Part shown: positions 10,109 through 40,599 of the stretch, piece after piece
How the letters are laid out: every line of letters starts with the position of its first letter
Position numbering within the stretch: position 1 is the stretch's first letter
Virus genome (UHGV): UHGV-0200912
Length of the DNA stretch: 44,693 nt
Source: a virus
Direction: 5' to 3' (one strand)
Notes under the pieces: generated by a model
Databases searched by the model: none
What the model saw: the letters and a program-made list of their open reading frames with translations, nothing else
Told to the model about the DNA's origin: nothing
Translations under genes and position numbers: made by a program

Positions 10109-10110
10109 TA

Positions 10111-10445
10111 TGGCATCTGACAAACCGATAACAGCACAGCAGGCCGCCGATTTGCTCATCGTGTCGGCGCGGGTGATCTACCGCCTGATTGAGTCTGGGG
10201 AGCTCGCTGGCCGCAAGGTCGGCAACAAGTACAGAACGACCGAAGCAGCTTGTATTGCATATTTGAAAACCCCGCGCGATCCTGTCATCGCGAACGCGGG
10301 TGAACATAAAGGAGAAGTTTTATGTCAATCACCCTCAGGGGCGGCGTGTGGCACTGTCATTTCTTTACGCCGTCAGGAAAAAGAGTTAGGCGATCTCTTG
10401 GCACGGGGGACAAAAAGCAGGCTCAGGAGCTCCACGACAAGCTGA
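10111..10445 (+). CDS. xis: excisionase-like HTH DNA-binding protein overlapping the int start
   Basis: GGAGGTG RBS; [32 protein letters not shown] helix-turn-helix; overlaps int by about 120 nt. Confidence 0.55.
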
Positions 10446-11485
10446 AGGCGGAAACGTGGCGGGTTGACCAGATCGGCGACCTGCCCGTCAGAACCTTTGA
10501 AGAGTGCTGCATCCGGTGGCTGCGGGAAAAGGACCATAAGCGATCGCTGGATGATGACAAAACCAAAATTGAGTTTTGGCTGCAGCATTTTTCCGGCCGT
10601 GATGTCTCGAAGATAACGGCGGATGAAGTTCATGAAGCCGTTAACGGGATGATCAACCGTAAACACCTGCAGGTGTGGGAGAGTAAGCGTGATGCCGCGC
10701 TGAGGAAGGGTAAGCCTGTTCCGGAGTACAAACCACGGCAGGTTTCGCAGGCGACGAAGGCGCAACACCTTTCCTTCATTCGATCCCTTCTCAGGGCCGC
10801 GGCGAATGACTGGGGCTGGATAAAAACAGCTCCTGTTATCAAAACCCGCAAGCCGATCAGTAAGCGGATACGGTGGCTGACCAGAGAAGAAGCTGAGCGG
10901 TTGATCGAGTGCATGCCGGAGAGCATTAAGCCAGTGGTGATATTTGCACTGGCAACCGGCCTGCGCCGCTCAAACATCATTGGGCTTGAGTGGCAACAGG
11001 TCGATATGCAGAGAAAGGTTGCATGGGTAAATCCGGAGAACGCAAAAGCGGGCAAGGCGATTGGCGTAGCTCTGAATGATACCGCATGCAGGGTATTAAG
11101 GGATCAGATAGGGAAGCATTCCCGGTGGGTGTTCGTTCACACGACGGCAAAGCATCGCCCTGATGGAACGCTGACGCCCGCGGTTAGAAAAATGCGTGTG
11201 GATGACAATAACGCCTGGCGAGCCGGGTTGAAAAAAGCGGGGATCGAGGATTTCCGTTTTCACGACCTCCGGCACACCTGGGCGAGCTGGCTTATTCAGT
11301 CCGGCGTCCCACTTTCTGTTTTGCAGGAAATGGGAGGATGGGAGAGCATCGAGATGGTACGTCGTTATGCTCACCTGGCGCCGAACCACCTGACCGAACA
11401 CGCACGGAAAATTGACGCCATTTTTGGCGCTAGCGACACAAATACGACACAAGGAGGAAATCAGGCTGGTTTGAAACTTGCATAA
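10322..11485 (+). CDS. int: tyrosine integrase
   Basis: C-terminal [15 protein letters not shown]...VRRYAHL (R..HxxR..Y catalytic motif); 387 aa; 3' end points at the att core. Confidence 0.9.
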
Positions 11486-11500
11486 GTGCTTGTTTCTTAA

Positions 11501-11545
11501 TGGCACGCCCTACAGGATTCGAACCTGTGACCTACGGCTTAGAAG
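11501..11545 (-). other. attP core: 45-nt copy of the 3' half of a tRNA-Arg(UCU) gene, anticodon loop to CCA
   Basis: reverse complement reads CTTCTAAGCCGTAGGTCACAGGTTCGAATCCTGTAGGGCGTGCCA, closely resembling the E. coli argU 3' half; the upstream part cannot form an anticodon stem, so it is a fragment and not a gene. Confidence 0.7.
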
Positions 11546-11605
11546 AAAGTAGAGCGTTAAATAACACACTGTAATCACACATGTTTTCCGCGTTCGCATC
11601 CGGTT

Positions 11606-11625
11606 TTGTGTCGTTTCGTGTCGTT
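11606..11625. repeat. tandem GTGTCGTTTC/GTGTCGTTTG in the attP arm (candidate Int arm-type or accessory sites)
   Basis: direct reading; a related inverted copy cgacacagaaaccacg lies at about 11664. Confidence 0.3.
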
Positions 11626-11712
11626 TGAATACATCCCTGTCTTTATCGTGCATTCCTGTCACGCCACATCTACGACACAGAAACCACGAACTCTTCCACT
11701 CATTGACAGCAA

Positions 11713-11937
11713 CTAAATAACCGCATTGTCCTGGCGCACATCGCAGATAGTAAACGTCACGATGCCGATGACAGTAACATTGTCCAGGGCTTCACCCTCG
11801 ATCGCTTCACCATCTTCGGTAATCAGCGACTTTCCTCTCAATGTGGCAAGTTCCGTCCCGCCGCCGTGCTGGATCAGAACCTGACTTCCCTGCTTTGGCT
11901 TCAGGGAGATATCCAGCACAACGTAACCGCAGAAATC
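11713..11937 (-). CDS. in-frame continuation of the tail fibre gene past an amber codon (readthrough extension or truncated remnant)
   Basis: same reading frame as 11938..12672, separated only by TAG at 11938..11940; 6 sense codons then a 68-codon ORF. Confidence 0.4.
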   Translation of the reverse strand, partial: DFCGYVVLDISLKPKQGSQVLIQHGGGTELATLRGKSLITEDGEAIEGEALDNVTVIGIVTFTICDVRQDNAVI

Positions 11938-27005: not shown

Positions 27006-27548
27006 TTATTGGGCTCGCCCATGGTTTTCATGGTAGCCATACTTAAATTCTGCTGACTTTCTTGCAGCAACAGCATCAATCAGGCTCTCATAATATCCGA
27101 GGTGAATCTGCCCACCCGCATGGTTAATCGAAGCAACCCAACGATTATCCCTTAAGCGCCAATGTACCCCGCAAACGCCAGAGATATTATTTTTATGCCT
27201 TGCCGAATTCCTTCCATTACCAACCCTGTCGACATCCCTTAAATTAATTAGGCGATTATCGTTTCTGACACCATTGATGTGGTCAATGAAGCCCTCTGGA
27301 TAGGCTCTGTAAGATAGCGCCCAAGCTATACGATGAGCCTTCATAAGCCTACCTTGAATACCAATCTCTAAATATCCATTGATGTTCAAGCAACCTGCTT
27401 CTTTCCCGCAAAATCTAGAGTGCCAAGTATTGAATACCCTTTCGGTTGAAAAATGAATCCTTGGTCTAGGTTTCCAGGTAATAATTCCAGTTCTTGGGTT
27501 ATAACTGAAACATTGATGTAAAAAATCGATATCAGGGTCTTTAGCCAT
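27006..27548 (-). CDS. HNH homing endonuclease with AP2 domain
   Basis: HNH_3 NGYLEIGIQGRLMKAHRIAWAL...IDHINGVRNDNRLINLR; AP2-like SGVCGVHWRLRDNRWVASINHAGGQIHLGYYES; AT-rich; GAGG RBS at ATG 27548. Confidence 0.75.
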   Translation of the reverse strand: MAKDPDIDFLHQCFSYNPRTGIITWKPRPRIHFSTERVFNTWHSRFCGKEAGCLNINGYLEIGIQGRLMKAHRIAWALSYRAYPEGFIDHINGVRNDNRLINLRDVDRVGNGRNSARHKNNISGVCGVHWRLRDNRWVASINHAGGQIHLGYYESLIDAVAARKSAEFKYGYHENHGRAQ

Positions 27549-27647
27549 AACAAACCTCACAGTAGGTTTCACAGAGAGAGGTGCGCGGCAACAGAGTCTG
27601 TGTTCTCTGCTTTCGACTGGCCGGTCTAGCCGCGCCATTACATTTTA

Positions 27648-37752: not shown

Positions 37753-38026
37753 TCGCAACAGCAACCCGGATATCAGCCGAGGCTCCCGATGCGTCCAGTG
37801 CGATCTGCTCTTTTGCATGCTGATTGGCCTCGGCGATGGTGTTGAAGATGGTCATGGTTGTCAGAACATTGGCGGTGATGGCCTGAGCGGTATTTACCTG
37901 CTGCTCAGCGTTTTCTGCTCTGGCTTCCTGCTTACTGGCAGCGTTGTGGTAATGCATTGCCAGCCATCCAAGGCAAACCACCAGGCAGATCACAACGGCA
38001 CTGATAATGGCGGCTAAACGGCTCAT
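37637..38026 (-). CDS. Rz: i-spanin Rz
   Basis: N-terminal TM then coiled coil; ATG overlaps the endolysin stop. Confidence 0.7.
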
Positions 38027-38532
38027 TTCTGCCCCCAAAGACAAACTTCGCGCTCAATCTCGCGGCGAGTTACCAGACCCTTCCACTGCTTACCCTTGGC
38101 GTAGGTCCAGCGGCGCAGCTGATCACATGCACCTTTCTGGTCGCCCTGGTTGATTTTGCGCAGCAGAGTGGAGGTCTGGAAGTTCCCAGCGCCGACGTTA
38201 TAGGCGAATGAGTAAAGCGCCCCGCGCATTGTCTCGGGAATCGTCTTCTGGATGTATGGGTTAATCTGGCGAGCGACGGTATTCAGGTCTTTGCTGAGCA
38301 GCGCACGGCATTCAGCCTCGGTGTACTTCTTGCCGAGCATGATGTCTTTGCCAGTGTGGCCATAGCAGACAGTCCAGACGCCTACCACATCCTGATAGGG
38401 GTCATAACGCACACCTTCAAGACCATCGTTACCGGTTGGTCCAGTGATGAGAGCAGAGGCAATGGCTATGGCGCCACCGCCGCCGGCGATCACGCCAATC
38501 AGTTTATTCCTCATTGATGGCGTCATGCTCAC
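38023..38532 (-). CDS. SAR-endolysin, GH24 T4-lysozyme family
   Basis: Gly/Ala-rich N-terminal signal-anchor [19 protein letters not shown]; catalytic E-D-T region [23 protein letters not shown]. Confidence 0.8.
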
Positions 38533-38843
38533 CCCTGTGTATCACTTGCGATCCGCTTCAAGGCCTCGGTTACCACTTCGGCTGAAGCCGGGCGGTCACC
38601 CCCAGGCTTTGCGGAGACATCAGCCAGATAACTGGCCAACAGCTGCGTGCGCTTTTTCTCTTCATCCAGTCGCTCTCGCTCTTCCTTGCGCTTTGCGTAA
38701 TACGTCTTGATTGTGAAGAAGGCAGAGATCAGGGCGCCAATGATGAAGACATAATCCTGCAGACTCAGGACGGAAAAGATACCAAGCAATGCTGACCACC
38801 AGTAAGGCAGATTGTGACCATCGGTTGGGTTCATACGTTGCAT
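38529..38843 (-). CDS. holin, likely pinholin partner of the SAR endolysin
   Basis: two TM helices; charged C-terminus; GGAGGTGAGAG RBS; ATGA overlap with the endolysin. Confidence 0.65.
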
Positions 38844-39546: not shown

Positions 39547-39623
39547 TGGCGCACCATTCAGGACTCGAACCTGAAACCGATAGCTTAGAAGGCTATTGCT
39601 CTTTCCGGTTGAGCTAATGGCGC
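39547..39623 (-). tRNA. tRNA-Arg (anticodon UCU)
   Basis: GCGCCATTAGCTCAACCGGAAAGAGCAATAGCCTTCTAAGCTATCGGTTTCAGGTTCGAGTCCTGAATGGTGCGCCA; 7-bp acceptor, D, anticodon (CTTCTAA) and T arms; CCA encoded. Confidence 0.85.
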
Positions 39624-39628
39624 TGAAT

Positions 39629-39706
39629 TGGTGCTCGCATCAGGGATCAAACCTGAAATCATCCGATTATGAGTCGGGTGCTTTAACCTTGTTAAGCTAT
39701 GCGAAC
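39629..39706 (-). tRNA. tRNA-Met or tRNA-Ile2 (anticodon CAU)
   Basis: GTTCGCATAGCTTAACAAGGTTAAAGCACCCGACTCATAATCGGATGATTTCAGGTTTGATCCCTGATGCGAGCACCA; T-loop GGTTTGATCC; anticodon loop CTCATAA. Confidence 0.75.
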
Positions 39707-39791: not shown

Positions 39792-39820
39792 ATAAAAAAG
39801 CCCCGGCGGAATGCCGAGGC
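39792..39820 (-). terminator. tR'-like rho-independent terminator downstream of the Q-like gene
   Basis: GCCTCGGC/GCCGGGGC stem then TTTTTTA on the minus strand. Confidence 0.6.
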
Positions 39821-39909
39821 TAATTTTACAAACTGGTATGTGACTATCATCTTCATGCCGCCACTTAAAGTTAAGGCAGCATATCAAAGTAGACTCAAAT
39901 ATGACGCAT

Positions 39910-40599
39910 TTAATCCAGTTTTGCAAGAGTTGAGTGAAAATTTGTCGCCTTTTGTTGTGAACGTGATCGCGTAACCTGCAAAAGAGAATCGCTATCAAGG
40001 CGCCGCAAGGTGGTTTTCATCTCCTCCCACCGCTCTGTAAACGTTTCTGACCAGTTCTTCGGGGTCACTCCGACCAGAGAGGCAAGTTTTTGGTATTCAT
40101 ACGTCTCCCGCCCTGCCAGCTCGGCTTTGACATCCTGCGCCGCCAGCCAGATAAGTTGACGGAGGCGATCGACTGTTTTCTTTGCAATGCGCGCGCCGGC
40201 CAGCTTCTTGCTGAATTGCTCCCATGCCCACCGGGTGATCGTCTCCTGGTGCTCCCAGCGGATATTGTCGCTGTAGTTCCACAGCAGCCACGTTTTCTGA
40301 TGCTCTTCCAGCGACAGTAGAGCCCGGCGCCAGCTTGCCGTCGAATACTCAACGGGAAGAACGAGAGCGATCGATGAACCCTTAGCGCGGGACTGGCTGC
40401 CACTCATTGGCGGCCCGTCCGGGTTAACCATGCGTTGTTTCACCTCGCTATAAACCTTCTTCCTTCCCCGGCTGCGCGCCGTAGCGGTGAATTGCGCGTT
40501 TTCTGCAAAGGCTACCAGTTGCCCTTTCGTCGCACCGCTCAGATCGGCGGTGGCCACTATCAGCTGCTGGCGAACAAATTCCAAGTATTGAGCTGTCAT
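39910..40599 (-). CDS. putative late antiterminator, Q-like by position
   Basis: 229 aa between NinG and the tR'/tRNA/lysis region; ATGA overlap with the upstream small ORF. Confidence 0.45.
   Translation of the reverse strand: MTAQYLEFVRQQLIVATADLSGATKGQLVAFAENAQFTATARSRGRKKVYSEVKQRMVNPDGPPMSGSQSRAKGSSIALVLPVEYSTASWRRALLSLEEHQKTWLLWNYSDNIRWEHQETITRWAWEQFSKKLAGARIAKKTVDRLRQLIWLAAQDVKAELAGRETYEYQKLASLVGVTPKNWSETFTERWEEMKTTLRRLDSDSLLQVTRSRSQQKATNFHSTLAKLD

Follow-up and report, generated by a model that had tools for sequence, protein, structure and literature searches.

Is the fragment of a tRNA gene located immediately after the integrase gene of this virus a site of integration, and is it related to the complete tRNA of the same specificity found elsewhere in the genome? 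The question arises from the gap at 11486-11712 of the viral genome UHGV-0200912, analysed as a single stretch of 44,693 nucleotides (the window). The gap opens after the int stop codon (TAA, 11483-11485), closes at the following ORF (11713-11919, minus strand) and bears the core of a putative phage attachment site (attP). A first-pass annotation, made from the letters alone, had read this core as the 3' half of a tRNA-Arg(UCU) and had predicted integration into the argU gene of the host.

The window comprises replication and early genes, an xis-like gene, int and attP, followed on the opposite strand by tail, head, terminase, lysis, Q and nin genes. Its closest relatives are Klebsiella prophages and phages, with 90-96% identity across 13-45% of the window. 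On the basis of gene order and phage matches it is therefore identified as the circularly permuted genome of a mosaic lambdoid temperate Klebsiella phage. The ORF adjoining attP (11713-11919) encodes 68 amino acids and matches a UmuD-like PHROG; phage HK639 has a UmuD of 133 aa at this position, and the version in the window may be truncated.

The tRNA fragment is a 45-mer on the plus strand at 11501-11545, TGGCACGCCCTACAGGATTCGAACCTGTGACCTACGGCTTAGAAG, beginning 15 nt past the int stop codon. Read on the minus strand, CTTCTAAGCCGTAGGTCACAGGTTCGAATCCTGTAGGGCGTGCCA, in the sense of the tRNA, it extends from the anticodon loop through the 3' strand of the anticodon stem, the variable loop and the T arm to the 3' acceptor strand and CCA, with the anticodon TCT at 11541-11543. 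No tRNA was called by ARAGORN at 11501-11545, the score of the 45-nt element against the Rfam tRNA model was 19.4 bits (threshold 29), and the DNA located 5' of the anticodon loop in attP (tRNA sense) is unrelated to the host tRNA. The half-tRNA is thus real but is not a gene, and no complete cloverleaf is formed by the element; sequence, ARAGORN and Rfam agree with the earlier description of a 45-nt tRNA-Arg(UCU) 3' half just past int and devoid of a 5' half. The scan of the attP region for promoters and terminators found none, and the strict IHF consensus WATCAANNNNTTR does not occur anywhere in the window.

The 45-mer agrees at 45 of 45 positions with the 3' part of the Klebsiella pneumoniae tRNA-Arg(tct), a gene of 77 nt (L066, L099), a match that is not due to chance. 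In a scan for exact matches covering one genome per bacterial species it was identified at 94 loci, 83 of them full tRNA-Arg genes and 11 of them 3' fragments that run into unrelated DNA; an Int homologue ends 18-94 nt away from at least 18 of the 83 full copies. Exact copies are also present in many species of Pantoea, Erwinia, Mixta, Photorhabdus, Pseudescherichia, Scandinavium and Trabulsiella and in a small number of more distant genera. The alignment with host argU genes, proposed as a check of the prediction, is exact for K. pneumoniae, many Erwiniaceae and other Enterobacteriaceae, but not for Escherichia coli K-12, whose argU has 6 mismatches in 45. Beyond the Enterobacterales the exact 45-nt half is present in Halopseudomonas, Motiliproteus, the Pasteurellaceae genera Testudinibacter and Chelonobacter, and Pasteurella testudinis (loci L004, L008, L010, L031, L038, L046, L047, L052, L055 and others).

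All four att forms were identified at the K. pneumoniae tRNA-Arg(UCU) gene beside folD. The attP form, with the layout int, core, arm, is found in the window and in L098. The int-proximal junction (L099 and 17 similar places) comprises int, with a 100% identical protein, the core, the tRNA 5' half and folD-ybcJ-cysS; in these lysogen contigs the exactly identical Int protein adjoins the host tRNA-Arg. The int-distal junction, located via the tail gene on the other side of attP, was identified in K. pneumoniae chromosomes (L101, L102, L104, L106-L108), where the host flank ...GATAAGTGATTGATTATTAAA is followed by the core and by an arm identical to that of the window. The fourth form, attB, is the intact tRNA gene of K. 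pneumoniae ATCC 13883 (L066), with the same host flank as the int-distal junctions. Comparison of attP, attB and the two junctions delimits the attP core as a 47-bp block of identity with the K. pneumoniae attB at 11499-11545 (minus strand), formed by 2 nt past the tRNA end (11499-11500) and the 45 nt of tRNA-Arg(UCU) from CCA to the first base of the anticodon loop. A collection of viral contigs added 83 further loci with the arm of the window, 41 of them with a K. pneumoniae flank and about 10 in the attP layout; 22 junction pairs from single viral contigs were looked at and both cores were readable in 15. The lysogens with a duplicated core that had been predicted are therefore present in public genomes with both junctions, the host gene is the one foreseen, and the tRNA-Arg of the lysogen is identical to the native one, as expected if the phage copy reconstitutes it.

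The absence of a 5' half, the score below the Rfam threshold and the presence of tRNA genes elsewhere in the phage would also suit a decayed phage tRNA remnant, or the scar of an imprecise excision, with no role in integration. However, the identity of the 45-mer is with the host gene, the phage's own tRNA-Arg differing from it at 10 of 45 positions; it occupies the same distance from int in DLP12, epsilon34, HK639 and RAH1; and it is the exact prophage boundary at both junctions. The four att forms effectively refute such a remnant or scar, which is left with practically no probability. The segment 11434-11678 is in our estimate the attP of the phage with a probability of about 93%, and nothing was found against this reading.

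L098 is a metagenome scaffold of 93.7 kb, about twice the phage length, with the attP layout internal; a double lysogen in tandem, or an assembled concatemer, could account for it. The K. pneumoniae attB flank located 3' of the tRNA (L066, L101 and others) itself derives from the 3' end of an integrase gene, a 27-aa stretch being 89% identical to Int residues 343-369, so that the site carries the mark of a previous occupant. Tandem elements were identified at the tRNA-Arg site in L103, L026 and L117/L196. In L103 (5128-6552) a P4-like integrase island (Arm-DNA-bind_3 integrase, AlpA, Bro-N) abuts a displaced core copy, in L026 the 3' end of another integrase abuts the core copy, and in L196 the arm of another element comes after the int-proximal core copy. 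The distal junction of L105 (5128-5172) is an exception: the first 8 nt of the core are TGAATGGC, versus the usual TGGCACGC, and it is flanked by ShlB/TPS two-partner-secretion genes, not by the usual host flank; the site may have been rearranged or may be a secondary one. A Klebsiella tRNA-Arg locus named 'arg3A', which may not be the UCU gene, was reported as occupied in more than half of the strains, mostly by prophages (bioRxiv 10.1101/2020.11.02.365908).

The protein expected to act on these sites is a tyrosine integrase of 387 aa (10322-11485, plus strand), identified with Pfam Phage_integrase PF00589 (residues 184-355, 1.1e-41), where the HxxR motif and the region of the catalytic Tyr are readable (HDLRHT ... 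VRRYAHL). Its identity, ungapped over 387 of 387 residues, is 63.6% with IntD of DLP12, 61.5% with Int of epsilon34 and 87.1% with Int of HK639. No solved structure covering the N-terminal third of the integrase was found. Recombination by this Int on these sites is predicted, with the lysogens carrying the exact Int as indirect support. Upstream and overlapping the start of int by 124 nt is a gene of 111 aa with a helix-turn-helix (10110-10445, plus strand), presumed to encode the excisionase (Xis): it matches Pfam HTH_17 (2.9e-8), PHROG 2907 'excisionase' (1.6e-37) and NCBIfam TIGR01764 'excise' (36.4 bits, cut-off 28.8).

The int-distal arm of attP (11546-11712) is non-coding, and K. pneumoniae lysogens carry it unchanged at their int-distal junctions. 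It contains the tandem repeat GTGTCGTTT at 11608-11616 and 11618-11626, which had been proposed as a pair of arm-type sites. The pair is present and its motif is enriched, but it is part of a larger set of five GTGTCG candidates, two of which lie inside int. These two are on the minus strand within the last codons of the gene, at 11434-11439 and 11445-11450, 11 bp from each other. The other three are in the int-distal arm, at 11608-11613 and 11618-11623 on the plus strand, 10 bp apart, and at 11673-11678 in inverted orientation on the minus strand. In 11425-11700 the motif was counted 5 times versus 0.13 expected (Poisson P ~3e-7); the motif has the consensus TTYYGTGTCGT, and its five copies lie within about 245 bp. 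In HK639 all five motifs are kept at their positions with the intervening DNA diverged. The two motifs within int are kept in HK639 and RAH1, which coding constraint may explain in part. The GTGTCG motifs are reasonable candidates for arm-type sites.

In the reading preferred here, the integrase recombines attP with the argU orthologue of the host, the tRNA-Arg(UCU) gene beside folD-ybcJ-cysS. After integration the working tRNA gene joins the host 5' half to the 3' half brought by the phage, and the 3' half originally in place persists as a non-functional fragment at the opposite prophage end. Since the phage copy is the K. pneumoniae allele, integration leaves the tRNA unchanged. The five GTGTCG motifs, two int-proximal and three int-distal, would presumably be bound by the N-terminal arm-binding domain of the integrase, and the product of the gene overlapping int upstream would presumably serve as excisionase.

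The point of strand exchange was approached through relatives, since the core of this phage equals the host allele and its own lysogens are therefore uninformative on the crossover. The attP of RAH1 has the same arms as the window and a core with T at position 4 and G at position 17, corresponding to the discriminator position 73 and the T-loop position 60 of the tRNA. In three pairs of prophage junctions with K. pneumoniae flanks (L112/L230, L126/L216 and L179/L207), each pair being drawn from a single viral contig, the host alleles C4/A17 are in the distal fragment and T4/G17 in the working tRNA. A fourth pair in another host (L344/L272) presents the same phage-side pattern at position 4 only. 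Among the copies with a K. pneumoniae flank, T4/G17 was identified in 0 of 41 distal copies and in 7 of 41 int-proximal ones, with T4 alone in another 3 of 41; T4 is linked to a phage-side spacer variant (Fisher p = 0.0003). The paired chimeric junctions possibly derive from clonally related lysogens and may represent few independent events. The segregation of alleles in them indicates that the working tRNA from CCA through the T-loop is phage DNA. At the RNA level, the working tRNA-Arg(UCU) of the seven junctions (L216, L309, L230, L250, L207, L237 and L261) has G73A, at the discriminator, together with U60C, and that of the three additional K. pneumoniae-flank junctions has G73A alone.

These alleles place the crossover between tRNA positions 32 and 59 (core positions 45 and 18, respectively), nearer to the anticodon than the T-loop is. 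Within this interval, strand exchange would most likely occur in the 7-nt anticodon loop at 11539-11545 (CTTCTAA, minus strand), the putative 7-bp overlap region in which the exact cleavage positions would fall. The anticodon loop is preferred because the identity block ends at its 5' edge and because in attB it is flanked by the inverted repeat ACGGC/GCCGT; the chimeric cores are consistent with it. The stop of attB identity exactly at the 5' edge of the loop was observed for at least 6 unrelated phage arms plus DLP12.

Exchange in the T-loop or at the tRNA 3' end of a correctly recognized attP has in its favour that many tRNA-targeting integrases use such sublocations (summarised in bioRxiv 10.1101/2020.11.02.365908) and that direct mapping brackets only tRNA positions 32-59. 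This placement is nevertheless improbable: paired junctions show the alleles of positions 73 and 60 travelling with the phage side, the identity block stops at the same edge of the anticodon loop in every arm variant, and the T-loop mismatch, which would be a heterology within the overlap, argues against the T-loop in that role. An overlap at the anticodon loop also agrees with integrases whose identity block reaches this loop, as do the Klebsiella 'arg3' recombination sites, which may not be in the UCU gene (bioRxiv 10.1101/2020.11.02.365908).

Other sources of crossover information were considered and set aside. For E. coli lysogens of HK639, a megablast search of 5,426 complete E. coli genomes with the HK639 int was negative, and the two core copies of DLP12 in MG1655 are identical and hence uninformative. 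HK639 (L109) and about 37 viral-contig loci carry a T-stem changed from ACAGG/CCTGT to GTAGG/CCTAC; as a chimera marker this allele was rejected, being native to hosts with Enterobacter-like flanks, and a chimera was identified only at position 4 of L344/L272. HK639 is recorded as an E. coli phage and carries this non-E. coli tRNA allele. Eight loci with the HK639-type arm 17-mer after non-tRNA DNA, taken as possible secondary-site insertions, were chance matches in which the arm is not continued.

The complete tRNA genes of the phage are located in the late region. The tRNA-Arg(UCU) of 77 nt (39547-39623, minus strand) was identified by ARAGORN and with 66.2 bits in Rfam; it is identical to the host gene at 61 of 77 positions overall and at 35 of 45 in the 3' half, so that the intact, sequence-distinct tRNA described earlier holds. 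Next to it is a complete CAU tRNA (39629-39706, minus strand; Met(cat) in ARAGORN, 58.1 bits in Rfam), also reported earlier, to which the annotation of related copies adds an identity. In E. coli prophages, copies 98.8% identical are annotated by PGAP as tRNA-Ile and tRNA-Arg, and the CAU tRNA is likewise annotated as tRNA-Ile in the records of the Klebsiella phages RothC and RothD. Because near-identical prophage copies are annotated in this way, the CAU tRNA is probably a tRNA-Ile2, the AUA decoder.

On the minus strand the order is the Q antiterminator gene (39910-40599; PHROG 304 'Q-like', 1.7e-95), a promoter-like site (39823-39850), a strong terminator-like hairpin with 9 GC-rich bp (39799-39821), the probable tRNA-Ile, tRNA-Arg, the holin (38529-38843) and the endolysin (38023-38526). 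The promoter-like site and the hairpin come from a consensus scan, and the two lysis genes downstream of the tRNAs from PHROG matches. The pair of intact tRNA genes, flanked by Q and its terminator on one side and by the lysis genes on the other, is in the classical late-leader position. They would be made with the late transcript and would decode AUA and AGA, plus AGG by wobble. The count of AGA and AGG that had been suggested shows the phage to be rich in both: in 12,387 phage codons versus a small host gene sample of 1,927 codons, the frequencies per 1000 are 7.0 versus 1.0 for AGA, 6.3 versus 0 for AGG and 9.0 versus 1.0 for AUA. These counts fit the usual codon-compensation role of phage tRNAs. 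The highest AGA/AGG density in the genome is that of an HNH endonuclease gene located among the head and tail genes (27006-27638, minus strand), with 17 AGA/AGG in 210 codons (about 8%); it is probably a recently acquired homing-type gene.

The first-pass annotation had joined the two features in the statement that the phage both targets and supplies the AGA decoder. Both are present, but they are two independent known modules that occur separately in related Klebsiella phages. A coupling in which the carried tRNA-Arg compensates for loss or alteration of the host argU, or serves the expression of an AGA/AGG-rich int, would draw on the fact that both features concern the same rare decoder, on the 11 AGA/AGG among the 387 codons of int and on the phage alleles gained at positions 73 and 60 of the working tRNA by some related K. 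pneumoniae lysogens. It is very unlikely: integration of this phage regenerates an identical tRNA, the tRNA genes are in the late leader past Q and its terminator and apart from int, and phage records combine the int and tRNA-Arg modules independently of each other. The int (at least 93% identical) occurs with the tRNA-Arg in 6 records and without a detectable copy in 7, and the tRNA-Arg is found in at least 13 phage records absent among the best 25 of 46 int matches. No functional link between argU targeting and tRNA-Arg supply was found in module co-occurrence, gene position or lysogen tRNA.

A different kind of link would be that the co-occurrence is not accidental since a tRNA-Arg diverged from the attP core in the anticodon stem and T arm, at 10 of 45 positions, could boost AGA/AGG decoding without creating, 28 kb from attP, a second substrate for Int or for homologous recombination. 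We regard this as a long shot. If true, the AGA/AGG-rich genes served by the diverged phage tRNA-Arg would be int, the HNH endonuclease gene and tail genes. As a related point, integration of phages with cores of the RAH1 type alters the host tRNA-Arg(UCU) at its discriminator base and in its T-loop, as in 7 of the 41 K. pneumoniae-flank junctions, which could have physiological effects.

The earlier observation is thus confirmed and its interpretation supported, the locus being an ordinary attP in a phage with a standard tRNA cassette, both of known kind. It matters little past correct annotation, where it fixes the integration site of the phage, a host range marker (the Klebsiella tRNA-Arg(UCU) gene beside folD), and the exact boundaries of the prophage. 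The natural variants illustrate the textbook principle that the phage supplies the 3' portion of the working tRNA of the lysogen. In many Enterobacterales genomes tRNA-Arg(UCU) genes of this type have an Int homologue nearby, and tandem elements are possible, which is useful for delimiting islands and prophages in Klebsiella genomes.

Among the known systems, lambdoid phages with tRNA genes in the late leader are exemplified by phage 933W, with ileZ-argN-argO upstream of stx. The window shares with this type a tRNA-Arg(UCU) and a probable tRNA-Ile(CAU), located after Q and its terminator and before the lysis genes, in a phage rich in AUA, AGA and AGG; it differs in having two tRNAs only and no toxin gene.

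Integration into argU with the tRNA end rebuilt from a phage copy is a familiar arrangement whose first description was that of DLP12, a prophage of E. coli. In E. coli K-12 (MG1655) the IntD of DLP12 also has 387 aa, with the same gap of 15 nt to the argU 3' end, and a 45(+2)-bp copy of the tRNA from anticodon loop to CCA marks the limits of the prophage, the distal copy ending at the CTTAGAAG boundary as in the window. The annotation of MG1655 begins the DLP12 prophage inside argU, at about nt 33. The argU copy of DLP12 was reported as 47 bp, the same block length as here (PMC6379469). DLP12 differs in its E. coli argU allele (6 mismatches to the core), in being defective and in its arm motifs, its distal arm being of the epsilon34 type, unlike that of the window.

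Phage epsilon34 (EU570103) shares the overlap of xis with int and has an attP of 44 nt annotated right after int ('putative attP site; region of similarity to 3' end of Salmonella argU'). This podovirus is P22-like and carries the argU allele of Salmonella; its distal arm is a different one (TTCCTAGAA...), and beside attP it has the gtrABC conversion module where the window has tail genes. A further group is formed by Klebsiella records (ST11-VIM1phi8.1, ST13-OXA48phi12.5, RAH1, KpnBHU6 and others) with int 93-98% identical. The Klebsiella prophage records with int 97-98% identical annotate an adjacent tRNA-Arg, and the records sharing int differ in the rest of their mosaic genomes (13-45% coverage of the window). 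The core of RAH1 departs from that of the window at tRNA positions 73 and 60, and HK639 has the same five motifs but two compensatory pair changes in the T-stem of its core. The site described here is a member of the known DLP12/epsilon34 family of argU-type attP sites.
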